The notes under the pieces are model-generated. The model ran no database searches. It was not told the DNA's origin and was given only the letters and a program-made list of their open reading frames with translations. The position numbers were made by a program, and so were the translations under genes. From Patescibacteria group bacterium (GTDB taxonomy: Bacteria; Patescibacteriota; Minisyncoccia; Phycocordibacterales; Phycocordibacteraceae), in the NCBI GenBank assembly GCA_040390125.1, contig JAZJYZ010000001.1, forward strand, positions 163,698 through 227,697: 64,000 bases of DNA, in the 5' to 3' direction. Positions 3,678-61,900 of this stretch are shown here, piece after piece. Each line of letters starts with the position of its first letter. The first letter of the stretch is position 1.

Positions 3678-3749
3678 TTGTAATTTCCTCCACTAAACCC
3701 TAGCCACTAAACGCTAAACCCTGCTCTGTAATGTTATTCTTACCAAAGA

Positions 3750-6791: not shown

Positions 6792-7274
6792 ATGAGGTGT
6801 CAGCTTTCAGCTTTCAGCTTTCAGGCGACGCCTCGTCGGATCCGAAGGGATCATAGGAGGAAAGAAAGCTTTTCGCGAGGGATGACACTTATTGAAGTAG
6901 TCGTCGCCGTCTCTTTGATGCTTATAATTTTCTTGGGATTTTTTGGTGCCTATGTGGCGTCTGCTGACTTGGTGCGGAGCACTTCTGCCCGAAGTGGAGC
7001 TCTCTTTCTTATGGCAAACAGAATGGAATACATAAGGGGGTTGGCGTATGGCTCTATAGGTACTGTGGGTGGAACGCCGTCAGGAAGTCTTGTGGCTAGT
7101 GAGCCAAGGATTTTGAATGGTATTACTTACACCATTCGTACAACGGTTGCATACATTGATGACGGAGCGAATGGTGCCGGTGCCGGCGATTATAAAACAG
7201 TGAAAGTTGAAGCAGATTGGAATTTTAGAAATGTCTCACAAAGTATCTCTACTGTTACCTATGTCGCACCGTAA
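6792..7274 (+). CDS. Type IV pilin / pseudopilin with a prepilin-type N-terminal methylation motif (SRG|MTLIEVVVAV); true start uncertain
   Basis: Class III signal hallmark G followed by xTLIE with E at +5 and a hydrophobic helix. The only in-frame ATG upstream gives a 30-aa leader overlapping the AGCTTTCAG repeats; ATG at 6882 would give no leader. Confidence 0.75.
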   Translation: MRCQLSAFSFQATPRRIRRDHRRKESFSRGMTLIEVVVAVSLMLIIFLGFFGAYVASADLVRSTSARSGALFLMANRMEYIRGLAYGSIGTVGGTPSGSLVASEPRILNGITYTIRTTVAYIDDGANGAGAGDYKTVKVEADWNFRNVSQSISTVTYVAP

Positions 7275-7857: not shown

Positions 7858-9104
7858 AGAATCTACCTCAGGTTCCAGCTTTCAGGTTCCAGCTTTCAGC
7901 TACAGGCAACAGAAGGGTGCGGGGGTTTTTGACGATTTTTGTACTCGTTGCTTCCTCCGTGTTTTTATTTTTACTCTCTGAGCTTATGGGCTCACTGACG
8001 TTAGAGCGTTTAGGGGGAACAATAGAGGCCGACAGTGAAAAAGCTTTTCATATAGCCGAAGCCGGGCTTGAGTACTATCGTTGGCACTTTGCAGAGTTTC
8101 CAGGTGATCTACAAGACGGTACTGCAAGTGCGGGGCCCTATGAGCATGATGTAGCGGATCCAGAAACTAGTAACACAATTGGAACATTTTCTCTTGATAT
8201 CTCAGGCATAACTTCATGCGGTGTACTCACATCCGCCACAGTGAACTCAACTGGTTCCATGGCTAGTAGCTCAACACACCGAACTACGTTGATTGCTGAA
8301 TATGGAAAACCCACACTTTCCGCATCAACGAGTCCGGCGAAGTCCGATGCTACAGCAATTGCAACATCGCTCCCAAGTTTGAAGACGTACGCACAGTCGT
8401 CAGGCGTTTACATTGCGACATCCACAGGGTATGGATACAAAATTGTTTTCAAATCGAACGGAACATTTGATGCGTCGCCCGTTACTGGTGTCACGGAGGT
8501 ATGGGGGTATTCAACGGATGATGGGTGGCAACAAGAGGATACGATTATTTCTACAACAGGTGTTGCGGTGAACCATACTGTGCCTTCCGAATGTCCGGTG
8601 GTATTTGTTGAAGATACTGTCTGGCTTCAAGGCACTGTTTCGGGCAAAGTTACGTTAGTTTCCGCAAATATAACAAACGCTGGCGTCGATCCGAATATTG
8701 TACTTACCGGAAACATTACGTACGCCCACGCATACGATGATGGTTTTACGGCGATTGCTGAAGATTCAGTACTGATATCACTAGATTCTCCTGACGTCAT
8801 GCAACTCTCAGGAATCTATGTAGCCAGCAAGGGTCACTTTGGGCGGCATCGCTATGATGCATCCGGCACTCACGCTGTTCCCGTAAGCCTTCAGTCGTCA
8901 GTGCTCCGCTCCACCCTCAACACATTTGGGACATTTGCTTCAATGGAGACAGTTGATACTAAATGGCTCTCTTCCGGTGCGTTTATTTCAGGCTATAGCA
9001 CAAGGACTGATGTCCATGATCCTTTCTTAGGAAAGCTACCTCCGCCGTTCACTCCGGTTACTTCAAATGACTTCCGTTTCACAGACTGGAGAATACAGGA
9101 GTAG
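7854..9104 (+). CDS. PilX-like minor pilin / pilus-associated protein (N-terminal TM helix, then an AFHIAEAGLEY motif typical of the PilX N domain)
   Basis: TM helix LTIFVLVASSVFLFLL followed by an A.AEAG motif; a GTG at 7917 is an alternative start, because the first 60 nt are AGCTTTCAG repeats. Confidence 0.6.
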   Translation: MKNLPQVPAFRFQLSATGNRRVRGFLTIFVLVASSVFLFLLSELMGSLTLERLGGTIEADSEKAFHIAEAGLEYYRWHFAEFPGDLQDGTASAGPYEHDVADPETSNTIGTFSLDISGITSCGVLTSATVNSTGSMASSSTHRTTLIAEYGKPTLSASTSPAKSDATAIATSLPSLKTYAQSSGVYIATSTGYGYKIVFKSNGTFDASPVTGVTEVWGYSTDDGWQQEDTIISTTGVAVNHTVPSECPVVFVEDTVWLQGTVSGKVTLVSANITNAGVDPNIVLTGNITYAHAYDDGFTAIAEDSVLISLDSPDVMQLSGIYVASKGHFGRHRYDASGTHAVPVSLQSSVLRSTLNTFGTFASMETVDTKWLSSGAFISGYSTRTDVHDPFLGKLPPPFTPVTSNDFRFTDWRIQE

Positions 9105-11611: not shown

Positions 11612-11731
11612 GTGCAGAAGGACTGAAGCCCGACAGCTGACCCCCACGGGGACTGAGATTTATAGCCAATCGTTGAACTCTTGGACAAATCGGGAGCCTG
11701 CAAGCTTCTGTGTTAGGATTTCTGCATGAAT

Positions 11732-11846
11732 CCCGTTAGAAATTGCGAATGCGAAACAGATAGAAATGGACTGCTGAGGTCGATGTTTAGTATTTTAAAT
11801 ATAGGTAGGTGCGAGGCACAGGCATTCGCATTCTATTTCTAACGGG
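11732..11846. repeat. Long imperfect inverted repeat (21-25-nt arms cccgttagaaattgcgaatgc / gcattcgcattctatttctaacggg) enclosing about 70 nt; it ends exactly at the tpiA start codon
   Basis: Arms are reverse complements with one 4-nt bulge. Confidence 0.55.
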
Positions 11847-14520: not shown

Positions 14521-14623
14521 AGGTTAGGTGTCAGCTGCCAGCTTTCAGGTTCCAGCTTCTCTTAATTCAAAGCTGAAAGCTGGAACCTGAAAGCTTCCTC
14601 TCTAAAATGTTACCATGTCCTAA

Positions 14624-22400: not shown

Positions 22401-22460
22401 ACAGGTAGCTGTCAGCTTTCAGGTGTCAGCTTTCAGCTTTAAATCTAGAACTTCATAATT

Positions 22461-23201: not shown

Positions 23202-23395
23202 ATTTTTTAGCTTTCAGCTGTTAGCTTACCGCCTAGCGAGGTGAGAGGAAAGCGAATTCTTGCTTTCCCGAGGGAGCGACGGCGGAAAACCCTTTTAGGG
23301 TTTATAAGCTTATAGCTTTAAACAGCAAAGTTTCAAAAGACTTTCTTCTCCTCCCTGAAAGCTGTAAGCTATAACCTGAAAGCTGGTAGTTCAAT

Positions 23396-25513: not shown

Positions 25514-27667
25514 ATGGGCAAAAGAGACTATCCATTGGACAGAGTTCGAAACTTCGGCATCATTGCGCACATTGATGCAGGTAAGACGACAACCTCTGAG
25601 CGTGTTTTGTACTACACGGGCTCTCAACACAAAATCGGCGAAGTGCACGAAGGAGAGACGACGACCGACTGGATGGAGCAAGAGCGTGAGCGTGGTATCA
25701 CCATTACCTCCGCTGCTATTACGTGTTTCTGGACACCCACTGAAGAGACAGATAAGAAAGACACGAGCAAAAAAATTCGCTTTAACGTCATCGACACTCC
25801 TGGACACATCGACTTCACCATTGAAGTGAAGCGCTCGCTTCGTGTGCTTGACGGCGCTGTGGTGGTTTTTGATGGCGTTGCAGGGGTTGAGCCACAATCA
25901 GAAACAAACTGGCGTTACGCTGACGAAGGAAAAGTTCCTCGCATTTGTTTCATCAATAAACTCGACCGAACTGGCGCATCATTTGAGCGTTCCTACGCAT
26001 CTATTTTAGACCGCCTCACCAAGGACGCTGTTCGCATGCAGGTTCCGATTGGTGAAGAAGGAGATCATGTGGGTGTTGTAGAGCTGTTGACTCGTGAAGC
26101 AGTGTATTTCGATGGTGACATGGGTGAGATTGTTCGTCGTGAAAAAGAAATTCCAGAAAATTTGAAAGCAGATGTTGAAAAGTATCGTGGTGAGCTCATT
26201 GAGAAAATTGTTTCTGAGGATGACGCCATGATGTCGAGCTACCTCGACGGTGTTGAACCATCTCTTGCTGATTTGAAAAAGACGCTCCGCAAAGCAGTCA
26301 TTGATAACAAAATTGTTCCTGTATATGCAGGCTCAGCACTGAAGAACAAAGGTGTTCAGCTTGTGCTCGATGCTGTGGTGGAATACCTCCCATCACCACT
26401 CGATTTGCCACCAACCAAAGGTATTAATCCAGACACAGGTGAAGAAGTATTCCGCAATGCTTCAGACGATGAGCCATTCTGTGCACTCGTCTTTAAACTC
26501 CAGACTGACCCATTCGTGGGGGCACTTTCATTTTTCCGTGTGTACTCAGGAAAAATTGAAGCAGGTTCGTATGTATACAACGCATCAACTGGCGTAAAGG
26601 AACGCCTTGGACGTATTGTGCGTCTTCAGGCTGACAAGCGTGAAGAAGTGAAAGAAGTTTTCACTGGGGAAATTGCAGCAGCAGTGGGCCTCAAAGAAGC
26701 AAAGACTTCTAACACGCTTGCTGACGAAGCAAACCCAATGATTCTTGAAATCATTAAGGCACCAGACCCAGTGGTTTCGATGCGTATTGAACCAAAAACA
26801 AAGGGTGACCAAGAAAGAATGGGTATGGCACTCAAAAAACTTTCTGATGAAGACCCAAGCTTCCGTGTCACCTCAGACGCTGAAACTATGGAAACAATTA
26901 TTGCAGGCATGGGTGAGCTTCACCTTGAAATTCTTGTTGACCGTATGAAACGTGAGTTCAATGTGGATGCAACCACAGGCAAACCACAAGTTGCGTACCG
27001 AGAAACAATTCAGAAAGAAGCAGAAGCAAATCATAAATACATTAAGCAAACTGGAGGTAAGGGTCAGTACGGTCACGTGGCAATTAAAATCAGGCCAATG
27101 GAACCGCTTGACCCTGGTGCAAAAGTAAAGAACAACGTGAAGCGTGAAGCGCACTTCGAGTTCATAAACAACATTAAGGGGGGTGTTATTCCACAAGAAT
27201 TTATTCCTGCAGTTGAGAAGGGTATTCGTGAAGCGATGGAGCGAGGTATTGTTGCAGGATTTAAAATGGAAGACATTTCAGTCGATCTCTTTGACGGTTC
27301 ATCTCACGATGTCGACTCATCAGAAATCGCATTCAAAATTGCGGCATCAATGGCATTCAAAGAGGCTGCTGAGCGTGCACGGCCAGTCTTGCTCGAGCCA
27401 GTCATGAAAGTTGAAGTCGTGGTACCGGAGAAATTCATGGGTGATATCACAGGGCACGTGACTTCAAAGCGAGGTGCGATTGATTCAATAGAAGAGCGAG
27501 GTATGGCAAAGGTAGTGAACGCAAAAGTGCCACTTTCAGAAATGTTCGGCTACACAACAGCGCTTCGTTCCATGACCGAGGGTCGTGGCGTTATGGCAAT
27601 GGAATTCGATCACTACGAAGTCGTTCCGCAAAACGTTGCTGAGACTATCAAGGCTGCACGGAAGTGA
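25514..27667 (+). CDS. fusA: Elongation factor G
   Basis: 717-aa ORF reading as EF-G throughout (G motifs AHIDAGKTT and DTPGH plus the domain IV-V region). Confidence 0.97.
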   Translation: MGKRDYPLDRVRNFGIIAHIDAGKTTTSERVLYYTGSQHKIGEVHEGETTTDWMEQERERGITITSAAITCFWTPTEETDKKDTSKKIRFNVIDTPGHIDFTIEVKRSLRVLDGAVVVFDGVAGVEPQSETNWRYADEGKVPRICFINKLDRTGASFERSYASILDRLTKDAVRMQVPIGEEGDHVGVVELLTREAVYFDGDMGEIVRREKEIPENLKADVEKYRGELIEKIVSEDDAMMSSYLDGVEPSLADLKKTLRKAVIDNKIVPVYAGSALKNKGVQLVLDAVVEYLPSPLDLPPTKGINPDTGEEVFRNASDDEPFCALVFKLQTDPFVGALSFFRVYSGKIEAGSYVYNASTGVKERLGRIVRLQADKREEVKEVFTGEIAAAVGLKEAKTSNTLADEANPMILEIIKAPDPVVSMRIEPKTKGDQERMGMALKKLSDEDPSFRVTSDAETMETIIAGMGELHLEILVDRMKREFNVDATTGKPQVAYRETIQKEAEANHKYIKQTGGKGQYGHVAIKIRPMEPLDPGAKVKNNVKREAHFEFINNIKGGVIPQEFIPAVEKGIREAMERGIVAGFKMEDISVDLFDGSSHDVDSSEIAFKIAASMAFKEAAERARPVLLEPVMKVEVVVPEKFMGDITGHVTSKRGAIDSIEERGMAKVVNAKVPLSEMFGYTTALRSMTEGRGVMAMEFDHYEVVPQNVAETIKAARK

Positions 27668-27704
27668 TTAACGTGCGTTCTTGTAGGTAGGAAGCGTAGG
27701 GTGT

Positions 27705-28031
27705 ATGACCTCAAGAGCCTCGGAAAAAATTAAAACTCAAAGAGAAATTGTTAGGCTAAAATTTGTTCGACCTAAAACTTTTAAAGAAGCCAATCTACGA
27801 TTGGCGGATCTAAAAAAGACACTGGGGAAAATTGATTCGCAACTGAGTAGCGAGTTGTTTCGTAATCGTTTTCCTGATGCAGTAAGTTACGCACGATGGC
27901 GACGCAGTGCCTATAAGGCTAAAGCTTTTTGTGGAATTGAAATGGCATTCATCAAAGGTGTGTTGAAACAGTTCAAGAAAAATAACTCTAGACAAAAAGG
28001 GGCTCTACCAATAATCGCTCCTCATTCTTAA
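27705..28031 (+). CDS. Hypothetical 108-aa basic ORF in the fusA-tuf spacer
   Basis: ORF only. Confidence 0.2.
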   Translation: MTSRASEKIKTQREIVRLKFVRPKTFKEANLRLADLKKTLGKIDSQLSSELFRNRFPDAVSYARWRRSAYKAKAFCGIEMAFIKGVLKQFKKNNSRQKGALPIIAPHS

Positions 28032-28722
28032 AAATCCTTAAAGTGTTTTTGATTGTTTTTTATGGCACACGGTTTTAGAGAGGGAACTTCTGCTGTTAAC
28101 ACTACGTGCCCTTTTTGTTTAAAAACTATTATGGTCATTAGAGATGGCCTTAGGAGGAAGATATTGCCACATTTCTCCACGAATACGAAGGGTGCTACTG
28201 AAGGTTGCGAGGGTAACGGGCGTGCAATCGAGGATTCGGATTAGTATTCCACAACACTCCGAACATTCTCTTGCGTAGTGAAACTAAGCGGAATACTATA
28301 GGTCTTATATGGAGGGTAGTACCCATCGGTTAGTGAGCTTTGGTAGGTCTTTTGTTGTAAGCAAAGGAGCAGATGTGAAACATAGGGGGATGAAGCGCCT
28401 TCCAGAAGACAGAAGCGTGCAAGGCCAGGATGGCTCAGCAGACAGGCATAATCGTACTCGTTTGAGGGGAAAGCGGGTTCGTTTCGATCCGAACGCACCA
28501 TTCCCAACTTTGATGTAATTGTGCTTGAAATTCGAACCTGATTCTTGACTCTTTTTAAGCTTTCAGATACAGTACCCCGTAACGCTTCACGCGTTCTTTT
28601 CGTCTACGATTCCTGGTTGTGCGGGCTTTCGGAGCGAAGCAAGGGCTCGGTGGTTTTTCTTAGCTCTTTGATTTAGAATTTACTAGTCCCTATACACTAA
28701 ACACTAATCACTAATTTATAAT

Positions 28723-29919
28723 ATGGTAGATTTCGCACGCACTAAGCCTCACGTCAACGTCGGTACTATCGGCCACGTCGACCACGGCAAGACTACCCTC
28801 ACTGCGGCTATCCTTTCCGTTCTTGCAAAGGCAGGAAATGGATACAGCGCATCAGTGAAGGACGTCGCTCAGATCGACAATGCACCTGAAGAAAAGGCTC
28901 GTGGTATTACCATCTCCCTTTCGCACTCCGAGTACGAATCACCAGCTCGCCACTACGCACACATCGATGCTCCTGGCCACGCTGACTACATCAAGAACAT
29001 GATTACTGGTGCCGCCCAAATGGACGGTGCAATTCTCGTTGTTGCTGCAACGGACGGTGTGATGCCTCAAACGCGTGAACACATTCTCCTCGCTAAGCAA
29101 GTTGGTGTACCAAAGGTCATTGTTTTCTTGAACAAGGTTGACATGGTTGACGATAAAGACCTCGTTGAGCTCGTTGAAGAAGAAGTTCGTGAGCTCCTCA
29201 CCAAGCAAGGCTTTGATGGTGCTGCAACTCCGGTTATCCGTGGTTCAGGCTTGAAGGCTCTTGAGAATCCAGCACCAGGCAACGAATGGTCTGAGAAGAT
29301 CATGGAGCTTGTAAAGGCACTCGATGATTACATTCCACAGCCAGAGAGAGACGTTTCTAAGCCATTCCTTATGCCAATTGAGGACATTTTCTCGATTGAA
29401 GGACGTGGCACCGTGGTTACTGGCCGTATTGAGCGTGGTCAGATAAAAGTAGGTGAAGAAGTTGAAATTGTCGGCCTCCAGCCAACAGTTAAGACCACTA
29501 TCACTGGTATTGAAATGTTCAACAAGTCCTTGCAAGAAGGTATGGCAGGCGACAACGCAGGCATCTTGCTCCGTGGTACGAAGAAAGAAGACGTACACCG
29601 TGGACAAGTTCTCGGAAAGACTGGCACCGTTACTCCGCACACTGACTTTGAAGCAGAAGTCTACATTCTCTCAAAGGAAGAAGGAGGTCGTCACACACCG
29701 TTCTTTACAGGCTACAAGCCACAGTTCTACGTCCGCACTACTGACGTCACTGGCGATGTAACCTTGCCTGAAGGAGTTGAAATGGTTATGCCAGGAGATA
29801 CCGTGAAGTTTAAAGTGAAACTTGTAGCACCAGTTGCCCTTGAAGAACAACAGCGCTTTGCTATCCGTGAAGGAGGTAAGACTGTCGGTGCTGGCGTGGT
29901 AACGAAGATAGTTGCGTAA
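28723..29919 (+). CDS. tuf: Elongation factor Tu
   Basis: [10 protein letters not shown] and DAPGHADY motifs; 398 aa. Confidence 0.97.
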
Positions 29920-30016
29920 ATTAGAACGTAGAAAGTTGTAGGTAGAATGTAGAAAACATTTCAGCAAAGAAAGTTCTTTAAAAAACTACATACTACCTGC
30001 TACTTACTACCCACTT

Positions 30017-30406
30017 GTGCATATGGCTGAAGAAACAACAACAAAAGCAAAAACGAAGCGTGTAACAAAAAAGAGCGTGGGTGCTGTGGCACCTGCAACT
30101 ACTTCGAAGTTGCGCCTTCGTGTGCGAGCCTATGATCACAAGGTCTTGGATGCTTCAGTGAAGCAGATTATCGACACCGCACTCCGTTTTGATGCGGAGG
30201 TTGTAGGTCCTATCCCGCTTCCAACTGACATCAAGAAGTTCACCGTGAACGCTTCGTCGTTCGTCTACAAAGATGCTCGTGAGCAGTTCGAGATTCGTAC
30301 ACATAAGCGAATTTTGGACATCGTAAACCCAACACCAAAAATCATTGATGCTTTGACGAACCTTTCGTTGCCATCAGGTGTCTCGGTTGATGTAAGGATG
30401 ATGTAG
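30017..30406 (+). CDS. rpsJ: 30S ribosomal protein S10 with a basic N-terminal extension
   Basis: [14 protein letters not shown]...FEIRTHKR S10 core. Confidence 0.93.
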
Positions 30407-30537
30407 TCGTTTGACGAGAATCGCAATCTGCTTTGTTGCAGGTTGCGGTGCTCTCTCGCCGTACGTAAGAGTACGGCTCGGTTTGCTCCTCGCCTGCGCC
30501 TCGCATCTCATCGATTCTCTCCAAACTCCAAATTAAA

Positions 30538-30566
30538 AACCGCCCGAAAGGGCGTTTTTTAATTTG
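30538..30566. terminator. Bidirectional rho-independent terminator aaaaaccgcccgaaagggcgtttttt
   Basis: GC-rich hairpin with A-run upstream and T-run downstream. Confidence 0.75.
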
Positions 30567-30597
30567 TGTTGCGTACAAGTTCTACGTTCCCCTGCTC

Positions 30598-30741
30598 TTA
30601 GGCTCTTTTATACCATTCTTTGGTAAGTTTATTGTATACATAATCGAATGGCATAGAAAAAGGATGAGGGTGGTGTTTAAAACCTGGACCAGTCGTTTCA
30701 TAACCACCTCGTCGTGAAATTAATTTTAGTCTCTCTTTCAT
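30598..30741 (-). CDS. Hypothetical 47-aa basic protein (MKERLKLISRRGGYETTGPGFKHHPHPFSMPFDYVYNKLTKEWYKRA), antisense to the S10 operon. The 61-aa track ORF starts inside the promoter, so the downstream ATG is preferred
   Basis: Consensus promoter immediately upstream and terminator immediately downstream on the minus strand. Confidence 0.3.
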   Translation of the reverse strand: MKERLKLISRRGGYETTGPGFKHHPHPFSMPFDYVYNKLTKEWYKRA

Positions 30742-30773
30742 AGATAAAATATAAGTTTTTAAGTGATACGTAA

Positions 30774-30802
30774 ATAATAGCATATTAGAAACCTTCTGTC
30801 AA
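30774..30802 (-). promoter_or_regulatory. Near-consensus sigma70-type promoter on the minus strand: TTGACA, 17-nt spacer, TATTAT
   Basis: -35 at 30797-30802 and -10 at 30774-30779 (read as the reverse complement); exact 17-nt spacer. Confidence 0.5.
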
Positions 30803-30906
30803 GTATTTCTATAGTGAGTTCAACAAGTAAGTGTACCACTCCAGACTTCTAAGGGGGGGCACCTTTGGTAAAATACCGAGGTTTCGTCGTGGTATTTTTA
30901 GGTTTC

Positions 30907-30935
30907 TTGCATCTTTTAGGTGCTTTGTGTATAGT
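30907..30935 (+). promoter_or_regulatory. Candidate promoter for the rplC operon: TTGCAT, 17-nt spacer, TATAGT
   Basis: Hexamers with an exact 17-nt spacer, about 120 nt upstream of rplC. Confidence 0.45.
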
Positions 30936-31014
30936 AGCTGAAACGCTACGTTTGCCTCCGAAACATCGAAAGGGTTGGACCCTTCGACAAGCTCAGGGTA
31001 AACCAATGGTATAT

Positions 31015-31047
31015 CGCACACTGCGAATACCGGTGTGCGTTTTTCTT
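31015..31047 (+). terminator. Leader hairpin cgcacac..gtgtgcg followed by TTTTTCTTT, 10 nt upstream of the rplC start; a candidate attenuator
   Basis: 7-bp GC-rich stem with a T-run; an alternative upstream hairpin cgaaaggg/cccttcg lies at 30967-30986. Confidence 0.45.
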
Positions 31048-31056
31048 TAAACAAAA

Positions 31057-31665
31057 ATGAAATTTCTTATCGGTACAAAACAGGGAATGACACAGGTCTT
31101 CAATTCAGCAGGTCACGCTGTGCCTGTTACCGTTATACATGCGCCAAAGGTTACAGTGACCCAAGTAAAGAACGTGGAGACTGATGGCTACAAGGCAGTG
31201 CAGGTAGGGTACGGTGAACAAAAGCAATCACGCATTGCAAAACCACAGCAACCTAAAGGAAATGTTCGTGGGCTTCGTGAGTTTCGTTTCGACGGAGCTG
31301 AGGCTCTTGAGGTCGGTGCCACATTTGATGTCACTGCTTTCTCAGAAGGTGAAAGCGTCGTTGTTTCAGGAATTTCAAAAGGAAAAGGTTTCCAGGGCGT
31401 CGTAAAGCGATACGGTTTCAAAGGAGGTCCTCGTACACATGGTCAGAAACATTCTGAAAGAGAGCGTGGTTCTTCAGGAGGAGGCCCAGGCCGAGCAGGT
31501 GGTCGCGTCGTGAAGGGTATGCGCATGGCAGGCCGAATGGGTTCTGACCGTGTGACTGTTCCAAATCTCGAGGTCATTCGAGTGGACAGTGTAAAAAATG
31601 AGATTTTTGTTCGTGGAGCAGTTCCAGGACGAAAGGGAACAGTAATTGAGATTCGTGGCAAATAA
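31057..31665 (+). CDS. rplC: 50S ribosomal protein L3
   Basis: 202-aa ORF reading as L3 (MKFLIGTKQGMTQVF... N-terminus, Gly/Arg-rich middle region). Confidence 0.95.
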   Translation: MKFLIGTKQGMTQVFNSAGHAVPVTVIHAPKVTVTQVKNVETDGYKAVQVGYGEQKQSRIAKPQQPKGNVRGLREFRFDGAEALEVGATFDVTAFSEGESVVVSGISKGKGFQGVVKRYGFKGGPRTHGQKHSERERGSSGGGPGRAGGRVVKGMRMAGRMGSDRVTVPNLEVIRVDSVKNEIFVRGAVPGRKGTVIEIRGK

Positions 31666-31666
31666 T

Positions 31667-32347
31667 ATGAAAGCATCTATATACAACACAAGTGCAAAAG
31701 AAGTAGGGGAAATCGAACTCCCAGATAGCATTTTCGGTGTAAAGCGAAATGATGCCTTGGTGCATCAGGTTGTTCTTGCCATGCAGGCAAACGCTCGCAC
31801 ACCAGTGGCTCACACGAAGGGTCGTGGTGAAGTACGAGGAGGAGGTAAGAAGCCATGGAAGCAAAAAGGCACTGGACGAGCTCGTCATGGTTCTATTCGT
31901 TCTCCTATTTGGAGAGGAGGAGGCACCACACATGGTCCTGTAAAGGAACGTGATTTCTCGCAGAAGATAAATAAGAAGATGCGCGCAAAAGCAGTTGCAA
32001 CAGTTCTTTCAGAAAAACTCCGCAAAGGAAAAATGATTTTTGTTGACTCGCTTTCCTTCAAGGCTCCAAAGACAAAAGATGCAAAGGCAACCCTCGGAGG
32101 TCTTGCTAAGATTGCAGGATTTGCAGAGCTTGCTACCCGAAGAAATAATGCAGCGCTCATTCTTCTTTCGAAGCATGATGTTGCTGCAGTAAAGAGTTTC
32201 CGCAACATGAAGAATGTGATGGTTGATGAAGCAAGAAATGCAAACCCTGTTGACTTGCTTACCTACCGATATATCCTCATTGTAGATCCACAGGTTGCTG
32301 TTAAAACCCTCTCATCCCGCCTTTCTGATATTAAAGCTAAAAGCTAA
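31667..32347 (+). CDS. rplD: 50S ribosomal protein L4 (start at ATG 31667; C-terminus ...IKAKS encoded by AAAGCTAAAAGC repeats)
   Basis: 227-aa ORF reading as L4 (RGEVRGGGKKPWKQKGTGRARHGS... central region); position between rplC and rplW. Confidence 0.9.
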   Translation: MKASIYNTSAKEVGEIELPDSIFGVKRNDALVHQVVLAMQANARTPVAHTKGRGEVRGGGKKPWKQKGTGRARHGSIRSPIWRGGGTTHGPVKERDFSQKINKKMRAKAVATVLSEKLRKGKMIFVDSLSFKAPKTKDAKATLGGLAKIAGFAELATRRNNAALILLSKHDVAAVKSFRNMKNVMVDEARNANPVDLLTYRYILIVDPQVAVKTLSSRLSDIKAKS

Positions 32348-32374
32348 AAGCTATAACCTAAAAGCTGACTATAT

Positions 32375-32782
32375 ATGGCACTTTTCAACACAAAAAAGAA
32401 TACGAAGAAGGCGAAGGAATCGATTCCAGAATCGAAGTCTGTTCTCCCTGAAAGCTCTAAGCCAAAAGCCAAAAGCTCTTCTGAACGTCCTTCTGCTCTC
32501 GCTGAGTATGCCAATGTTTTGGTACGCCCTCGCATTACCGAGAAAGCAGCAAACATGACCGCACAAGGTGTGTATACATTTGATATTCGCAAGACCGCAA
32601 CAAAGAAGGATGTTGCTAAGGCGGTACACGCACTCTACAAAGTGATGCCAATTAAAGTGAATGTCGTAAATACACCAGCAAAACGTGTGCAGATGAGAAA
32701 GAAGCGTGGTTTTGGTAAGACTGCTGCATCAAGAAAAGCTCTTGTATTTTTAAAGAAAGGTGACACTATCCGTTTCTCATAA
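32375..32782 (+). CDS. rplW: 50S ribosomal protein L23 with a roughly 40-aa K/S/P-rich N-terminal extension
   Basis: L23 core VLVRPRITEKA...; position between rplD and rplB. Confidence 0.88.
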   Translation: MALFNTKKNTKKAKESIPESKSVLPESSKPKAKSSSERPSALAEYANVLVRPRITEKAANMTAQGVYTFDIRKTATKKDVAKAVHALYKVMPIKVNVVNTPAKRVQMRKKRGFGKTAASRKALVFLKKGDTIRFS

Positions 32783-32800
32783 ATTTTTTACTATACGCAT

Positions 32801-33664
32801 ATGTCTTCTACACGAAATTACAAAGCACGCACCGCATCTACTCGTCACATGAGTGTGATTCGTTACCGGGGTGTTGTGACGACCAGCAAGCCTCTAAAGT
32901 CTTTGACGAAGGGTAAGAAAAACCGTGCAGGCCGAAACTCTTTTGGTCGTATTACAACTCGCCACCAAGGAGGCGGACACAAACAGCAGGTGCGCATGGT
33001 TGATTTTATGTTCGCTAAAAAGAACATCTGGGGCAAGGTTGAGCACATTGAATACGATCCCACTCGCTCAGGTTTCATTGCTCGCATTGTAGACATAGAC
33101 GGAGAGCGCCGATACATACTTGCACCGAAGTCTTTGAAAGTTGACGATAAAGTCATCACTTCTGAAACTGCCCCAATCACTCCTGGAAATCGTCTTCCTT
33201 TGAAGAATATTCCAATTGGAACATTCATCTACAACATTGAGATTCATGCAAACGGGGGTGCGAAGATTGCTCGAAGTGCTGGCAATCATGCCGAGCTTAT
33301 TGCACTTGACGCTGGGTACGCTCAAATCAAGCTCCCTTCAACTGAAGTTCGCAAGGTGGTAGACACTGCATGGGCATCCATTGGCGAGGTTTCAAACGAT
33401 GCACATCATCTTGTCATCATTGGTAAAGCAGGTCGTTCTAGACACATGGGTATCCGCCCAACGGTACGTGGTACTGCTATGAACCCAGTTGACCATCCAC
33501 ACGGAGGAGGTGAAGGCCGTCAGGGTCGTGGACACAGAAGGCAACGCACTATGTGGGGTAAGCCATCAGGAAAGGGTCAAAAGACACGAACTCCAAAGAA
33601 ATACTCCAATCCGTTCATTGTTTCTCGTCGCCGTGTTGGAAAGAAGAGAACAAAGGGAGCGTAA
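32801..33664 (+). CDS. rplB: 50S ribosomal protein L2
   Basis: 287-aa ORF reading as L2 (Gly/His/Arg-rich C-terminal half ...GRNSFGRITTRHQGGGHKQ... and ...DHPHGGGEGRQGRGHRRQ...). Confidence 0.95.
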   Translation: MSSTRNYKARTASTRHMSVIRYRGVVTTSKPLKSLTKGKKNRAGRNSFGRITTRHQGGGHKQQVRMVDFMFAKKNIWGKVEHIEYDPTRSGFIARIVDIDGERRYILAPKSLKVDDKVITSETAPITPGNRLPLKNIPIGTFIYNIEIHANGGAKIARSAGNHAELIALDAGYAQIKLPSTEVRKVVDTAWASIGEVSNDAHHLVIIGKAGRSRHMGIRPTVRGTAMNPVDHPHGGGEGRQGRGHRRQRTMWGKPSGKGQKTRTPKKYSNPFIVSRRRVGKKRTKGA

Positions 33665-33727: not shown

Positions 33728-36700
33728 ATGAACGTTATTTCTCGAAGTGTCAATTTTTCGTTTCTTTTTTTCGGGATCTCTTTTGCTTTGGTAGCAGTGC
33801 TTTTTGTTGCATTGCCAACGCCTGTTCATGCTGGTCCTCAAACTGGTGGTTGCGGAGAATCTTGGGGATATGAGTATACCGTAGTAGTAAACCCGTATAC
33901 GCCATTTACTCCTGCTCATGATGCCTGGCACTCACTTCACGGCGGTGATAGCTACACGGTACAGAGTGCATATCAAATAGCTAGCGTTGGTGATGAGGGA
34001 TGTCCTGTTAGTGATCCACCATACATAGCCCCTACTGTTGGCGTTGTCGTAGTTCCTTTAACTATTACTGCGGGTGAATCTTCCCAGCTTGCGTGGGGGG
34101 CCGAGAATACACTTTCTTGTACGGGCACGAACTTTTCAACTGGCTCGGCCACTCAAGGTGTAGTCACTGTTTCTCCAACAGTGACTACAACCTATTCTGT
34201 TAGTTGTACTGACGGTGCTACTACTGTATCGTCGAGTGCTACGCTATTTGTTAATCCACCACCTGTACCCACAGCATCTCTAAGCGCAAGTACAAATTCT
34301 ATTGTCTCAGGGAGCCCCTCAACGCTCACGTGGAATTCCACGAACGCCACTTCGTGTGCAGGTACTAATTTTTCAACCGGCGGAGCAACGGCAGGATCTG
34401 TGAGCGTTTCGCCAGTGAGTAGCACTTCATACCTTGTATCTTGCACAGGGCTTAGTGGATCGGCTTCAGCTTCTGTTACTGTCACCGTAACGCCTCCAGT
34501 CCTCCAAGCAAGTTGTTCAGTTTCATCCACGTCTGCCATTGTTGGGCAAGCAGTCACGTGGACTGCCGTACCTTCCGGTGGTACCGGCTCCTACACGTAT
34601 TCCTGGAGTGGAAGTGATAGTCTTTCAGGTACAGGAAGTTCAGTTTCGAAATCATACTCATCGACGGGTACCAAAACTGGCTCTGTTAGTGTCACCTCTG
34701 GATCGCAAACAACTTCGGTGACTTGCTCGAACAGTGTGTCGATAAGTAATGCTCCAGTTGCTGTTTCTTGTTCAGTATCTCCAACCTCTGCCACCGTCGG
34801 TAGCTCTGCTACGTGGAGCGCAAGTGCCTCAGGTGGCACCGGCTCCTACACGTATTCGTGGACTGGTACTGACAGTCTTTCCGGCACGGGTGCGTCTGTA
34901 TCCAAAACATATTCCACGACGGGAACAAAAACTGGATCGGTAACGGCAACCTCCGGCGGACAATCGGCTACAGCAAATTGTTCAAACAGTGTAGTGGTGA
35001 GTAACACTCCAGTAACTGGTTCTTGTTCGGTGTCGCCATCTTCTCAAACAACAGGCAGTGCCGTCACGTGGAGCGCAAGTGCTTCCGGTGGCACCGGCTC
35101 GTACAGCTATGTATGGAGTGGCACCGATAGTCTTTCAGGCAGTGCCAGTTCCGTTTCGAAGACGTATTCAAGCACTGGCACGAAGAGTGGCTCAGTAATA
35201 ATTACTTCAGGGGGAAATTCTACGAGCGTGACCTGTGCAAACTCGGTATCAGTAAGTTATCCGGCAATTACCGGCTCGTGCTCTGTGTCGCCTACAACTA
35301 TCACCGCAGGTGGTTCTGCAACGTGGAGTGCAAGTGCTTCTGGTGGCTCCGGTTCCTACACGTATTCTTGGAGTGGTACGGACAGCCTTTCTGGCACAGG
35401 CACATCAGTCACAAAAACCTACTCCAGTTCGGGTGCGAAGACTGCCTCGATTACTATTACTTCAGGCGGAAGTTCCGAGGTAATTAACTGCTCTAATGCA
35501 CTCACGGTAGGTAATGTGCCGGTAGGTGGTTCCTGCTCTGTAACGCCAACCAGTATGTATGCCGGTAGTTCTGCAACATGGACTGCTGTACCTTCAGGTG
35601 GCACCGGCTCGTACACGTATGTATGGAGTGGCACTGACAGTCTTTCAGGTACTGCTAGCTCGGTTTCAAAAACGTATTCAGGAAGCGGTATTAAGACGGG
35701 TTCCGTCGCAATCACTTCAGGAGGAAATTCTGCTACTGTGACGTGTTCGAATTCTGTTGCAGTGAGTGTGACGTTGTCGGATCTCATTACTGGTGCTGTG
35801 TCTCCAACTTCTGCCGTTGCAGGTGTTGCACAAATGTTTTCTGCAACAATCACCAACATTGGGCAGTCTGGGACGAATGGTGCTTTCACGAGTTTATTCC
35901 AGCGAGCAACATCTGCAGGTGGTGCAAATACGACCGATATTGGCACCGATGGCTCTCCGAGTGTGTCTGCAAATGGTACAGACGTGGCTGGGCTTTCGTA
36001 TGCGTTTCCCTCAGGAGGTATTTGGTACTTACGTGTTTGGGCCGACAAAAGCGGAACGGCGGATTCGGGGGCCATTAATGAGTCGAGTGAAAGCAATAAC
36101 TCAGGTGCATGGACTGCAATCTCTGTGTCGAGCCCAACATTGAGTGCGTACTGTAATGTCGCACCTGCCTCGGGATATTCTGGAGATACATTTACGTGGA
36201 CGGCATACCCATCTGGTGGCACCGGCTCCTACACCTATTCGTGGACTGGCAGTGACGGACTCTCCGGCACCACGCAAAGTGTTGCAAAATCATATTCGAC
36301 TTCTGGCACTAAGACTGGTTCCGTGACGGTGGTTTCTGGCGGGCAATCGGTAGGTGCCACATGTGCATCTGCAAATCTATCGAATGTTCCAAGTGCGCTC
36401 ATAACCGCAACTCCAAATTCTATTATTCTTGGCAACACGTCTCGTCTTGACTGGACTTCTTCAAACGCATCTTCCTGTAACAGTTCTGCTTTCTCGACCG
36501 GCGGGGCACCATCGGGTTCCGTAACCGTTACCCCTTTAACTACAAAAACCTATGACCTGACCTGTACTGATGGCACACGAACAGGTGTCTCTAGCGCAAC
36601 GGTGACCGTCGTTCCTGTTGGACTCACGCTTTCAATCAATCCTTCAACGACAGTTCGTCAAGGGGATCCTGCAACAGTTAACTGGTCAGTGAGTGGAAGT

Positions 36701-36871
36701 CCTGATTCTTGTTCAATTCAGGGTCCTGGTCTCTCATCAACCGCTCTCTCTGGGTCACGGGTAGTGACTATTACTGCGGAGAGCACTTACGTCCTCACGT
36801 GTACCTCAGGAGGTTCTTCGATAACCACTTCAGTCACTATAGGCCTGACCCCCCACTTTGAAGAGTTTTAA
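33728..36871 (+). CDS. Giant 1047-aa secreted Ser/Thr/Gly-rich tandem-repeat protein. It has a signal peptide, 6 copies of an 85-aa Cys-bracketed module (CSVSPTS..TW.A.ASGGTGSYTYSW.GTDSLSGTG.SVSKTYS.TGTKTGSV...C.NSV.VSN) and 4 copies of a second roughly 70-aa module (L.W.S.NA.SC....FSTGGA..GSV.V.P....Y.L.CT). It is inserted between rplB and rpsS
   Basis: Uninterrupted 3144-nt ORF; about 255-bp nucleotide-level tandem repeats (ggtggcaccggctcctacacgtattcgtgg recurs at 34576, 34830, 35088, 35342, 35596, 36212); hydrophobic N-terminus ending ...PTPVHA. Confidence 0.8.
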   Translation: MNVISRSVNFSFLFFGISFALVAVLFVALPTPVHAGPQTGGCGESWGYEYTVVVNPYTPFTPAHDAWHSLHGGDSYTVQSAYQIASVGDEGCPVSDPPYIAPTVGVVVVPLTITAGESSQLAWGAENTLSCTGTNFSTGSATQGVVTVSPTVTTTYSVSCTDGATTVSSSATLFVNPPPVPTASLSASTNSIVSGSPSTLTWNSTNATSCAGTNFSTGGATAGSVSVSPVSSTSYLVSCTGLSGSASASVTVTVTPPVLQASCSVSSTSAIVGQAVTWTAVPSGGTGSYTYSWSGSDSLSGTGSSVSKSYSSTGTKTGSVSVTSGSQTTSVTCSNSVSISNAPVAVSCSVSPTSATVGSSATWSASASGGTGSYTYSWTGTDSLSGTGASVSKTYSTTGTKTGSVTATSGGQSATANCSNSVVVSNTPVTGSCSVSPSSQTTGSAVTWSASASGGTGSYSYVWSGTDSLSGSASSVSKTYSSTGTKSGSVIITSGGNSTSVTCANSVSVSYPAITGSCSVSPTTITAGGSATWSASASGGSGSYTYSWSGTDSLSGTGTSVTKTYSSSGAKTASITITSGGSSEVINCSNALTVGNVPVGGSCSVTPTSMYAGSSATWTAVPSGGTGSYTYVWSGTDSLSGTASSVSKTYSGSGIKTGSVAITSGGNSATVTCSNSVAVSVTLSDLITGAVSPTSAVAGVAQMFSATITNIGQSGTNGAFTSLFQRATSAGGANTTDIGTDGSPSVSANGTDVAGLSYAFPSGGIWYLRVWADKSGTADSGAINESSESNNSGAWTAISVSSPTLSAYCNVAPASGYSGDTFTWTAYPSGGTGSYTYSWTGSDGLSGTTQSVAKSYSTSGTKTGSVTVVSGGQSVGATCASANLSNVPSALITATPNSIILGNTSRLDWTSSNASSCNSSAFSTGGAPSGSVTVTPLTTKTYDLTCTDGTRTGVSSATVTVVPVGLTLSINPSTTVRQGDPATVNWSVSGSPDSCSIQGPGLSSTALSGSRVVTITAESTYVLTCTSGGSSITTSVTIGLTPHFEEF

Positions 36872-46471: not shown

Positions 46472-46999
46472 ATGGAACTCCACACACTTACACGCACAAA
46501 GAGTAACAAAGCAACCCGCCGTGTTGGCCGTGGAGGTAAGCGTGGCAAGACGTCTGGCCGTGGTTCAAAGGGTCAGAAGTCACGTGCTGGTGCAAAATTT
46601 CGTCCTGAATGGCGTGACATCATCAAAAAAATTCCAAAGCGACGTGGATACGGCAGAAACCGTTCTCGAACAGCCGTGCCACGCATCCGTTTTGCAACCG
46701 TGAATTTTGATACTCTCTCGAGACAGTTCAAGGCGGGGGACATCATTACTCCGATTGCATTGGTTAAGGCTGGAGCTGTACGCCGTATTTCTGGCAAAGT
46801 TCCTCCGATAAAGATTCTTGCTCGAGGAGAGATCAGCATGAAGCTCGCTTTTGAGGACGTTCTCATTTCAGAAGTAGCTAAGACACTAATTGAAAAAGCT
46901 GGTGGCACTGTCCGTGCTCCTATTTCAAAGAAGGTACTGCCTTCTAAAAAAGACACTTCTCCTAAAAAAGCTGCTTCCTCCCTAAAAGCTAAAAGCTAA
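46472..46999 (+). CDS. rplO: 50S ribosomal protein L15, directly after rpsE (no L30 gene), with a K/S-rich C-terminal tail
   Basis: MELHTLTRTKSNKATRRVGRGGKRGKTSGRG... Confidence 0.9.
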   Translation: MELHTLTRTKSNKATRRVGRGGKRGKTSGRGSKGQKSRAGAKFRPEWRDIIKKIPKRRGYGRNRSRTAVPRIRFATVNFDTLSRQFKAGDIITPIALVKAGAVRRISGKVPPIKILARGEISMKLAFEDVLISEVAKTLIEKAGGTVRAPISKKVLPSKKDTSPKKAASSLKAKS

Positions 47000-47011
47000 A
47001 AGCTGGTTACT

Positions 47012-55391: not shown

Positions 55392-56003
55392 ATGAATACA
55401 GATGCAAAATTTGAGAATGAGCGCACGCTAGTCATATTGAAGCCTGACGCTGTGCAACGCTCTCTCGTGGGCGAGATAATGAAGCGTATTGAAAGGACGG
55501 GACTAAAGTTTGTGGCCTTCAAGTTTGGTATCGCTACGGAAGATCAACTTGTTCGTCACTACAATAAGGACGAAAAGTGGTTTCTTGAGAAAGGAACTCG
55601 AATATTGAATGACCGAACCACCCATAACTTGCCAATAGAGAAGGATGCGCTTGGGTACGGTAAAGAAATAATAGATTCAATAGTGAAATTCATGACTGCA
55701 GGTCCTGTATTAATGATGGTGATTGAAGGAAATGAGTCAGTAGCCGTTGTGAAGAAGCTTGTGGGTGCCACAGAGCCAAAGACATCGGATGTCGGGACTA
55801 TTCGAGGTGACTACACTGTGGATTCGTATGACCACTCATCGGTACAGAGTCGTGCCGTCAGAAACCTCGTCCACTGCTCTGAATCTCCTGAAGAAGCATC
55901 ACGTGAAATTGCCGTGTGGTTTAAGCCCGAAGAAATTTTGAAATATCGTATCGTTCAGGAGCAGATCCTCTACGATGTGAACCTTGACGGGATAATGGAG
56001 TAG
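55392..56003 (+). CDS. ndk: Nucleoside diphosphate kinase (with an internal insertion)
   Basis: LVILKPDAVQR..., ...NLVHCSESPEEASREIAVWF. Confidence 0.88.
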   Translation: MNTDAKFENERTLVILKPDAVQRSLVGEIMKRIERTGLKFVAFKFGIATEDQLVRHYNKDEKWFLEKGTRILNDRTTHNLPIEKDALGYGKEIIDSIVKFMTAGPVLMMVIEGNESVAVVKKLVGATEPKTSDVGTIRGDYTVDSYDHSSVQSRAVRNLVHCSESPEEASREIAVWFKPEEILKYRIVQEQILYDVNLDGIME

Positions 56004-56041
56004 CTTCCAGCTTCCAGCTTCCAGCTTCCAGAGAAAATTGT

Positions 56042-61457: not shown

Positions 61458-61499
61458 CCACAAATACAAAAGCCCGCCTAAGCGGGTTTGTATTTGTGG
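61458..61499 (-). terminator. Long palindromic hairpin ccacaaatacaaa-agcccgc-ctaa-gcgggtt-tgtatttgtgg overlapping the tmRNA 3' end; presumed ssrA terminator
   Basis: About 19-bp inverted repeat seen directly. Confidence 0.55.
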
Positions 61500-61900
61500 A
61501 GGTGGGGAGAGTCGAACTCCCGTACGAAGAGGGTCTCCGAAATGTTTCTACAAGACATAGTTCGTTTCAAGATTTAAGACAGGTGGGTAGAGAACGAACA
61601 AAATGACACCTATCCGAGCTCTCCAATTTCATTCTTTTCTACGAGCAGTAGAGAAGAATATAGCCTGATGTTATGGCACTAGAAACTTCGTATCAGACGT
61701 CAGAAGTCTAGCGCCGTCCCGACCGAAGTGAGGACGGAAGAGGTAGCTTACGCTAATGCCAACGCGAAGTCAGCACGAGTGAAGTAGCCCTTTATAGTAG
61801 AAGCGTTTGCACGTTTCAGTGCTCGAGGTTTAAGGTGTTCTCCAGCATTCACCGTCTTGCGCACAACAGAGGAAATTCTCCGTCGAAACCAGTCACCCCC
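61497..61900 (-). ncRNA. ssrA: tmRNA (SsrA), about 404 nt. The 5' end is GGGGGUGACUGGUUUCGACGG; the 3' tRNA-like end is GGGAGUUCGACUCUCCCCACCUCCA with CCA not encoded. The predicted tag reading frame ends ...ADFALALA*
   Basis: The 5' end matches the conserved tmRNA start GGGGCUGAUUCUGGAUUCGACGGG; the T-arm UUCGA and acceptor pairing GGGGGUG/CACCUCC include a G3:U pair; an alanine-rich tag ORF stop lies at 61748; smpB is adjacent. Confidence 0.8.

Follow-up and report, generated by a model that had tools for sequence, protein, structure and literature searches.

Patescibacteria, for which the name candidate phyla radiation (CPR) is in use as well, are ultra-small, mostly uncultured bacteria with tiny genomes. 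We analyzed a 64-kb stretch of DNA from a Patescibacterium of the Paceibacteria type, which we refer to as the window; all coordinates given without a locus number are positions in it, and L-numbers (L001, L202, L221 and so on) denote the loci and contigs with which it was compared. Our subject is the 650-nt gap between the ribosomal-protein genes rpsJ (S10; 30023-30406, plus strand; Pfam Ribosomal_S10, E = 1.4e-30) and rplC (31057-31665, plus strand; Pfam L3), and above all a leader RNA that fills the last part of this gap. Behind rpsJ, the last gene of a tuf-rpsJ transcription unit, stands an intrinsic terminator of the form A5-C-CGCCC-GAAA-GGGCG-T6 (30535-30560; stem CGCCC/GGGCG at 30541-30554), followed by a small minus-strand unit and then by a plus-strand promoter, the leader and the genes rplC-rplD-rplW-rplB (31057-33664, plus strand), open reading frames (ORFs) that relatives keep in identical order. 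All of the gap elements listed in a preliminary description of this DNA are present where it placed them, including the strong bidirectional terminator after rpsJ, which was called on both strands and is kept in L001. The latter is the metagenome-assembled genome (MAG) FW305_bin.14, the best genome match to the window, with tuf and rplC proteins that are 98% identical. CCGCCC hairpins of a similar kind are found 3′ of rpsJ in L202, L203, L205, L208 and L211. As the gap of L205 and L221 holds nothing else, rpsJ, terminator, promoter, leader and rplC make up the basic arrangement. In this Paceibacteria-type lineage the S10 operon thus appears to be split after rpsJ, with rplC-rplD-rplW-rplB restarting from a promoter of their own.

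The promoter of the rplC operon, TTGCAT-17-TATAGT (30907-30935, plus strand; TTGCAT at 30907-30912, TATAGT at 30930-30935), recurs in relatives with the same spacing. CTTGCAT and TATAGT are found in L202, L205, L208, L209 and L211, and in L203 TTGCCC replaces TTGCAT; these comparison loci were retrieved through the identity of their rplC proteins and not through promoter sequence. The leader that follows (~105 nt, 30936-31045, plus strand) is built from two invariant flanks, AACGCUAC and ACCAAUGG, around a covarying hairpin that we call P2, and then a terminator. The 5′ flank, GAAACGCUAC (30940-30949), can provide one strand of a helix 1 (GCUA:UGGY) or, alternatively, pair with the terminator's 3′ half in a helix P1. 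Its counterpart, ACCAAUGG(UA) (31002-31011), can provide the 3′ strand of helix 1 or the 5′ strand of an anti-terminator, and it is invariant in 29/29 unique leaders, for 20 scan matches partly by construction. In the window P2 takes a long, lineage-specific version (30950-31003, tip at 30966-30987), which carries the 19-mer CCCTTCGACAAGCTCAGGG at 30980-30998. The leader terminator, CGCACAC-loop-GUGUGCG followed by U5 (31015-31044, with the hairpin at 31015-31039), has a 9-bp stem with 6 G-C pairs and lies 12 nt before the rplC ATG (31057). As modelled, the operator combines helix 1 and a conserved 1x3 internal loop (C / CAA) with two closing pairs, G-C and U-A, and the stem of P2, whose sequence and length are free. 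A kink-turn reading of the C/CAA loop was set aside by reasoning alone, as its strand polarity and G·A pairs misfit. Identity of the ~105-nt RNA as a tRNA, signal recognition particle RNA or RNase P RNA was also rejected, ARAGORN and Rfam having returned no match. Just upstream of the promoter lies a further hairpin, AAAATACC..GGTATTTT (30872-30897), followed by a T-rich stretch; L001 keeps this hairpin at 3697-3720 with a compensatory GTACC..GGTAC, and it may insulate the rplC promoter from upstream transcription.

The leader belongs to a family that is found before rplC wherever we encountered it. Searching with rplC homologues at 71-85% identity led to the contigs L202, L203/L204, L205, L208, L209/L210 and L211, all of which carry the leader unit directly before rplC. 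The family unit reads -35 (CTTGCAT; TTGCCC in L203), 17 nt, TATAGT, RAACGCUAC-GU-[P2]-AC-CAAUGG, a G+C hairpin, U5-7, 5-15 nt and AUG. A metagenome scan with the pattern TATAGT-N4-8-AACRCTACGT-N12-42-ACCAATGG, of which rplC is not a part, returned 20 contigs, and the rplC start lies 90-240 nt downstream in 20/20; the invariance of AACRCTACGT, ACCAATGG and TATAGT in these 20 matches is by construction. More divergent leaders, arranged around GGACCAAUGG upstream of rplC, were found in L005, L012, L014, L017, L019, L024, L025, L027 and L033, which belong to MAGs of Kaiserbacteria, Nomurabacteria and further Paceibacteria. From 11 sequences we built a covariance model (R1), and its search over 594 kb gave 34 matches, one per locus and 34/34 before rplC; the window leader scores 44 bits (E = 5.7e-8) and is the sole copy in the 64 kb. 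Conservation of the leader in related genomes, which the preliminary description had proposed as a check, was therefore seen at 34 loci, always before rplC, and together with the covariation described below it bears out the proposal of a new promoter and an attenuator-like leader at this position.

Taken as bare consensus matches, the promoters and terminators of this region do not exceed chance. A consensus scan over 8 kb found 7 promoter-like sites where shuffled sequence predicts 9.1, and 12 terminator-like sites where it predicts 8.2; TTGCAT agrees with 3/6 positions of the -35 consensus, and the scan did not call TTGCAT-17-TATAGT. The elements of the gap stand above chance because they are conserved in related genomes. 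Between the window and L001, the share of 4-fold degenerate sites that differ is 27% in tuf, 31% in rplC and 54% in rpsJ, and the 150 nt at 30898-31047 that span the plus-strand promoter, the leader RNA and its terminator show 3 differences (98% identity).

The predicted structure is supported by compensatory change. A MAFFT alignment of 11 subfamily-A leaders, which is independent of the model (alignment A5), has P2 paired throughout (100%), with compensatory changes in 4 pairs of this hairpin. In a second alignment of 33 sequences (A6), which were aligned to the covariance model and hence fitted to that structure, 93% of cells are paired and 15/22 pairs show changes on both sides. The covariation score of A6 is 0.323 against 0.092 in shuffles, of which 0/500 reach 0.323, and slid controls reach at most 0.07; these shuffle statistics overstate significance and independence because the leader sequences are phylogenetically related. 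Taking the alignments together, P2 is 98-100% paired, and between 4 and 6 of the 8 P2 pairs show compensatory changes. For helix 1 the 33 sequences give 100% pairing, its outer pair being GC, GU, CG or AU, and in A6 compensatory change is seen across the family in 8/8 pairs of the terminator. A MAFFT alignment of all 28 leaders was discarded for pair counting, as P2 and the terminator aligned too poorly in it. The leader is thus, as judged by sequence comparison, a conserved RNA with a covarying predicted structure in the 5′ untranslated region (UTR) of a ribosomal-protein operon, syntenic across species, which is the general mark of a ribosomal-protein leader, and we consider it very likely that it is a functional cis element. 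It is apparently undescribed so far for the Paceibacteria. Our literature search returned no S10 or rplC leader described for Patescibacteria, and Rfam (release 15) gave no leader family in the window at the gathering score, nor at 27600-31200 with E <= 10, and nothing relevant with E <= 1 in the canonical members L205, L221, L005, L012 and L225. The sole Rfam match in the window at the gathering score is a transfer-messenger RNA (tmRNA; 61494-61900, minus strand).

The leader also encodes a second way of folding. The minimum-free-energy fold of the window leader (-37 kcal/mol, z = -3.75) is a three-way junction and not the terminator form: 5′ GAAACGC(UAC) pairs with the terminator 3′ half and U-run in P1, GGUAU-UCGCA pairs with UGCGA-AUACC in a helix P3, and P2 sits between the two. 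These pairings against the terminator use the invariant 5′ AAACGC and CCAAUGGUAU. The terminator and anti-terminator conformers lie 0-6 kcal/mol apart in 29/29 unique leaders (-34.3 and -37.4 kcal/mol, respectively, in the window), and the complementarity is retained in different registers. The terminator loops of subfamily B keep C[CU][AG]UUG, the complement of the invariant CAAUGG; in L217, L224, L226 and L229 the complement of CAAUGG is the terminator 3′ strand; the register of subfamily A is GGUAU:AUACY; and L208 has a compensatory P1 pair, AAACAC:GUGUUU. When terminator base pairs and loop bases were shuffled with the shape kept, the real terminator favoured the anti-terminator with p <= 0.05 in 15/29 leaders, compared with ~1.5 expected by chance, and the window gave a ΔΔG of -3.1 against 0.0 ± 0.3 (p = 0.005); here, too, the relatedness of the leaders makes the counts look more independent than they are. 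Mononucleotide shuffles of the anti-terminator complementarity were uninformative (median p 0.31), and a 6-nt complementary run is no rarity in one sequence (p about 0.1). An H-type pseudoknot in place of the alternative hairpin was rejected by reasoning alone, as its loop 3 would cross a 5-bp stem with 1 nt and is sterically implausible. Folding models and this statistical support indicate that the leader encodes a mutually exclusive anti-terminator pairing of comparable stability.

The arrangement of the locus constrains what such a leader could do. With a strong terminator behind rpsJ and too little space for a promoter from the U-run to the ATG, the essential genes rplC-rplB must be transcribed through the leader, and the leader terminator must for that reason be conditional or bypassed. 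The unit from promoter to terminator could instead be an independent small-RNA (sRNA) gene of ~105 nt that merely adjoins rplC, as would fit its own promoter, its terminator-like 3′ end, its shape as a discrete 150-nt block of 98% identity, and the 120 nt that separate it from rplC in L001. We regard this as very improbable, given that the unit is never seen apart from rplC, that the essential downstream genes have no other promoter, and that an anti-terminator design would be purposeless in a stand-alone sRNA.

From the anatomy, conservation, position, covariation and encoded alternative fold of the leader, we infer a termination event, a switch and a ligand as follows. The anti-terminator, made up of P1 (AACGC:GCGUU) and P3 (CCAAUGG(UAU) paired to the loop or a strand of the terminator), would form by default during transcription, and RNA polymerase would then read through into rplC. 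A ribosomal protein encoded by the operon, when in excess, would bind the operator; uL4 is the candidate by precedent, and uL3, uL23 and uL2 are candidates as well. Binding would trap the flanks, acting as an anti-anti-terminator, so that the terminator forms and transcription stops, the outcome being negative feedback of the Bacillus subtilis L20/infC type. By analogy with such systems, protein-controlled termination at the leader in this full form is the explanation that we favor, with moderate confidence.

A different proposal is that the leader is a 5′-UTR operator that acts on translation or messenger RNA stability, that its hairpin and U-run do not terminate, and that the bound protein or the 3′ hairpin hinders ribosome loading. 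In most members only 5-15 nt do lie between the end of the hairpin and the AUG, and structure near the AUG could matter since Shine-Dalgarno sequences are rare: in the 25 nt that precede the start, only 2/28 long ORFs of the window have GGAG, GAGG, AGGA or AAGG. The U-runs of subfamily C are weak, and E. coli L4 acts on translation as well as on termination (PMC3616713). Yet U-runs of 4-7 are kept right after the G+C stem in nearly all members of subfamilies A and B, the complementarity of the terminator to upstream invariant bases is what an anti-terminator requires, and several members, L001 among them, have 40-140 nt between hairpin and AUG. On balance we think control at the level of translation or stability unlikely.

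It is also conceivable that the leader senses something other than a ribosomal protein, either a small molecule, as a riboswitch does, or a transcription factor such as an antitermination complex of the NusB/NusE(S10) type. Invariant single-stranded flanks together with an internal loop resemble a compact aptamer, and rpsJ, whose product is NusE, lies directly upstream. The motif CGCUACGUA may be loosely boxA-like. A sensor of a metabolite or of a general factor would be expected at further genes, and the leader occurs solely before rplC-rplD-rplW-rplB (34/34); in addition, the known leaders of this gene set have been assigned to L4. A ligand of this other kind therefore strikes us as improbable.

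Protein-controlled termination finds its closest parallel in the infC-rpmI-rplT leader of B. subtilis, where L20-dependent transcription attenuation has been shown experimentally: read-through is the default, and the bound ribosomal protein traps the operator and thereby causes termination (PMC1865079). The leader of the window resembles it in having a conserved operator with a terminator downstream, in a long-range anti-terminator that joins operator bases to the terminator, has a slight edge in stability and would be kinetically favored, and in a protein that would act as an anti-anti-terminator (PMC1865079). The two differ in that they share no sequence or structural homology, serve different operons in different phyla, and measure ~80-105 nt in Patescibacteria, where the leader is known from sequence only, against ~200 nt in B. 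subtilis. The S10 leader of E. coli lies upstream of rpsJ, is restricted to Gammaproteobacteria and has five hairpins (HA-HG), one of them over the S10 start; HD-HG are needed for L4-dependent termination (PMC3616713). It controls the same gene block (rplC, rplD, rplW, rplB), it too has a terminator hairpin and U-run, and its autogenous control by L4 is a precedent for the feedback proposed here. The leader of the window is placed downstream of rpsJ, has one operator hairpin and a terminator, and is unrelated in sequence, with no Rfam match, so that the idea of a relocated E. coli L4 leader, put forward in the preliminary description, fails on position, hairpin architecture and homology. Comparative genomics has also given an L4 leader candidate directly before rplC for the Archaeoglobi only, and no leader for Patescibacteria (Eckert & Weinberg 2020; PMC7247131). 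That candidate likewise stands directly upstream of rplC-rplD-rplW-rplB with L4 as its presumed ligand (PMC7247131), but it is an archaeal motif unrelated to ours, and Rfam 15 gave no ribosomal-protein leader match in the window or in the canonical members. To the L4 leader of E. coli and the L20 leader of B. subtilis the rplC leader is analogous, not homologous, and its logic comes closest to that of L20/infC.

Besides the fitting of A6 to its own model, the relatedness of the sequences and the invariance built into the scan, several observations weigh against conditional termination by a ribosomal protein. In L206, with an rplC identity of 74%, only 4 nt separate rpsJ from rplC and the leader is absent. 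Members of subfamily C (L012, L017, L019, L025) have a poor U-run after the hairpin, rplC lies 60-70 nt further on, and P1 encloses the hairpin; control in this subfamily may not be by termination. The variation in the anti-terminator helices is mostly one-sided (wobble), and the structure-preserving shuffle is not significant at p <= 0.1 in 11/29 leaders, for example L217, L226 and L229. The E. coli 23S rRNA, the sole rRNA compared, contains CCAAUGG once, at nt 2703 (H97), as a hairpin tip outside an operator-like context, and mimicry of helix 97 by the leader was rejected on this account. Finally, in L001 the leader terminator and the rplC ATG are set apart by a 120-nt insertion (3868-3995) that contains another hairpin and T-run; close spacing of terminator and ATG is therefore not essential, and read-through must pass a second hairpin in this genome. 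The insertion itself folds into a branched hairpin, AACCCTGTTAAAT..ATTTAACAGGGTT, with TTTTT behind it, and lies between copies of a direct repeat, TTTTTCTAGA, that resembles a target-site duplication, which gives it the look of a miniature inverted-repeat transposable element (MITE).

The P2 hairpin of the window departs from the family in its distal part. There, the window and L001 have a 50-nt replacement where L214, L221 and other relatives have the standard P2 of 26 nt, and the 3′ arm of the window P2 carries the 19-mer CCCTTCGACAAGCTCAGGG exactly. The hairpin at 30967-30986, which the preliminary description took for an alternative hairpin of an attenuator, does exist; it is the tip of this replaced, variable P2 and not an anti-terminator. 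Comparison with the relatives indicates that the P2 tip of the window and L001 is a recent replacement by a repeat-bearing hairpin. The leader probably still works, because the flanks and the G-C/U-A closing pairs are kept, and model R1 continues to score the window at 44 bits despite the replacement. The 16-mer core of CCCTTCGACAAGCTCAGGG is found in at least 120 IMG/VR contigs, where a rough estimate gives ~30 by chance, and among the matches listed it usually lies within a palindrome, CCGTTCG-TGGTGAGCCTGTCGAACCA..loop..GCCCTTCGACAAGCTCAGGG-CGAACGG. This palindromic repeat crosses environments and many unrelated contigs, sometimes in tandem (IMG/VR loci L082-L201; for example L082 230-300, L112 1170-1280 and 6240-6375). 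It has no Rfam family, with a weak similarity to AaHKsRNA41 only, and a literature search by repeat sequence and by peptide translations returned nothing relevant. The window P2 shares with it the 19-mer and the GAAGGG..CCCTTC tip of some copies; it differs in being a single copy within a regulatory hairpin, and in a 5′ arm that mismatches the canonical partner arm.

Between the rpsJ terminator and the rplC promoter lies a slot whose content varies among genomes. In the window and L001 it holds the minus-strand unit, which begins with a near-consensus promoter, TTGACA-17-TATTAT with a TG (30774-30802, minus strand). This promoter agrees with the consensus at 11/12 positions, and no site in the 8 kb scanned matches better; the scan of L001 called it as well, inside a 41-nt block that is 100% identical. 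Downstream of it is a basic orphan ORF of 47 aa, MKERLKLISRRGGYETTGPGFKHHPHPFSMPFDYVYNKLTKEWYKRA (30598-30741, minus strand), and the bidirectional terminator closes this unit as well as the rpsJ transcript. The unit is probably expressed, because its near-consensus promoter is perfectly conserved and a terminator is present. The preliminary description called it antisense, which is a misnomer since it overlaps no gene; its promoter, ORF and terminator are present in the sequence, and translation of the ORF or a structure in the RNA finds no support in the comparisons that follow.

The ORF is intact in L001 with 64% amino-acid identity, in a region of 84% nucleotide identity where the GC content falls to 0.32 at the ORF; among the relatives in which its conservation was checked it is found in L001 only, being absent from L214 and L221. 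An identical ORF is carried by a 749-kb NCBI contig and by a Logan contig. Neither Pfam (E <= 1) nor PHROG gave a match, and a resemblance to L33 that had come to mind was dropped for lack of a Pfam Ribosomal_L33 match. A word-indexed search of 5.8 billion proteins found only the ORF itself, and an exhaustive HMMER search of 1.84 billion representatives found itself and two long repetitive proteins over 20-27 residues, which we judged spurious. The absence of a Shine-Dalgarno sequence is uninformative here, because only 2/28 window genes have one. It is possible, and we put it forward only tentatively, that the unit encodes a real and fast-evolving basic accessory or cargo protein, as opposed to an sRNA or DNA in decay. 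L001 retains the start, the stop and the length of the ORF, although it has 25 substitutions there and indels in the flanks, the N- and C-terminal thirds are conserved, the promoter is unchanged, and other strains carry other small ORFs with promoters of their own at the slot. The substitutions are spread evenly over the codon positions (9/10/6; 3 synonymous and 17 non-synonymous codons), a sign of purifying selection on the reading frame was not found between the window and L001, homologues and domains were not found, and by a rough estimate the frame would be open by chance ~1 in 3. An RNA product is equally unsupported: the minus-strand transcript shows 0 compensatory pairs against L001, and paired support is confined to the invariant terminator. 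The sequences compared suggest that the unit is a strain-variable orphan, a convergent/divergent mini-gene with a small protein or a small RNA as candidate products.

Other genomes fill the slot differently. L214 has a different ORF of 84 aa on the minus strand with its own TTGACA promoter, L203 has an ORF of 63 aa on the minus strand, and L202 and L211 have plus-strand ORFs of 116 and 128 aa. The slot is empty in L205, L217, L218, L221 and L227, and it is expanded to gaps of ~0.9-3.6 kb with unrelated genes in L005, L014, L017, L019, L213, L219, L225, L228 and L230. None of these cargo ORFs has a Pfam or PHROG family, and mutual similarity was found only between the near-identical L219 and L225. 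The DNA directly 3′ of rpsJ (30407-30530, plus strand), which is not part of the leader, is a variable structured region as well: an element of ~105 nt that bears internal hairpins and the terminal inverted repeats GAGAATCG..CGATTCTC. With the terminator included (30407-30566), it folds at -68.6 kcal/mol with z = -8.5. The element is 88% identical in L214 only (11662-11790); L221 has nothing there, and in L001 the 125 nt after rpsJ cannot be aligned with the window and contain a different set of hairpins. The rpsJ|rplC gap accordingly holds three layers, an old conserved leader, a recent change of P2 and a strain-variable cargo slot. A bolder view would make the rpsJ|rplC boundary of Paceibacteria a landing pad, framed by a conserved insulating terminator on one side and the conserved rplC promoter and leader on the other, that repeatedly captures unrelated small genes, with a P2 that can be overwritten by a cross-phylum mobile CCCTTCGACAAGCTCAGGG hairpin and a leader that senses a CPR-specific factor or a metabolite in place of a ribosomal protein; we give this combination little credence.

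A second break in the ribosomal cluster is found at the rplB|rpsS junction. After rplB, where rpsS would follow, the window encodes a 1047-aa PKD/CARDB protein of surface type (33728-36871; Pfam PKD_4). L208 has a 219-aa and a 959-aa PKD/CARDB protein at the same junction, and four further relatives have a minus-strand Y1_Tnp gene of the IS200/IS605 type (L205 6704-7378, L206 5529-6200, L209 5567-6247, L211 5643-6329). Upstream of the gap, fusA (25514-27667), a 108-aa ORF and tuf (28723-29919) precede rpsJ, and the scan found neither a terminator-like hairpin nor a promoter-like site between the tuf stop and rpsJ (29920-30022). A 65-nt block ~120-180 nt upstream of tuf (28542-28606) is 70-95% identical in 12 relatives while the neighbouring DNA is unconserved; it contains a promoter, TTGACT-17-TACAGT, and a hairpin, AACGCTTCACGCGTT followed by CTTTTCGTCT, and judging from these features it may be a second conserved promoter and leader, for tuf-rpsJ. 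Between the 108-aa ORF and this promoter, the G-rich region at 28032-28540 (GC skew up to +0.3) has short ORFs only, of 63 and 69 aa. Neither L001 nor other relatives share this region, which has no Rfam match, folds with z = -1.4 and is probably another variable insert.

The S10 protein of the window has a lysine/alanine-rich N-terminal extension of ~30 residues (30023-30110; L001 2743-2835) that is almost wholly different between the two genomes, and their S10 cores are identical save for the last residue. At the 4-fold sites of rplC the window differs by 28-31% from each of L001, L214 and L221, all four being roughly equidistant; the similarities of rpsJ and rplC form a mosaic among these genomes, which suggests recombination. 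Elsewhere in the window, tandem heptamers AGCTGAA / AGCTAAA recur in intergenic DNA at gene starts and ends (6802-6819, 7877-7901, 14540-14595, 22407-22438, 23209-23226), with further clusters at 23360-23384, 32335-32366, 46987-47004 and 56002-56026; AGCTRAAAGCT with at most 1 mismatch has 32 matches in the window, compared with 2.9 ± 1.6 expected. A GTAGAA-type repeat that resembles them lies between tuf and rpsJ at 29925-29955. ARAGORN found no tRNA genes in the 64 kb.

To our knowledge, gene regulation in Patescibacteria is almost entirely uncharted, and neither Rfam release 15 nor our literature search yielded a cis-regulatory RNA for their ribosomal-protein genes. The rplC leader, being compact, carrying invariant flanks and occurring in many Paceibacteria, offers a concrete target for in vitro work on which protein binds it and whether transcription terminates. 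The very conserved S10 cluster is broken in this lineage and used as an insertion site, which is relevant for the use of syntenic phylogenetic markers. In the less likely case of a ligand other than a ribosomal protein, these reduced cells would have in the leader a master switch for making ribosomes. If ribosomal-protein feedback is borne out, the leader would show how Patescibacteria balance ribosome synthesis, and that attenuation-type feedback by a ribosomal protein arose independently at a new point of the S10 cluster.

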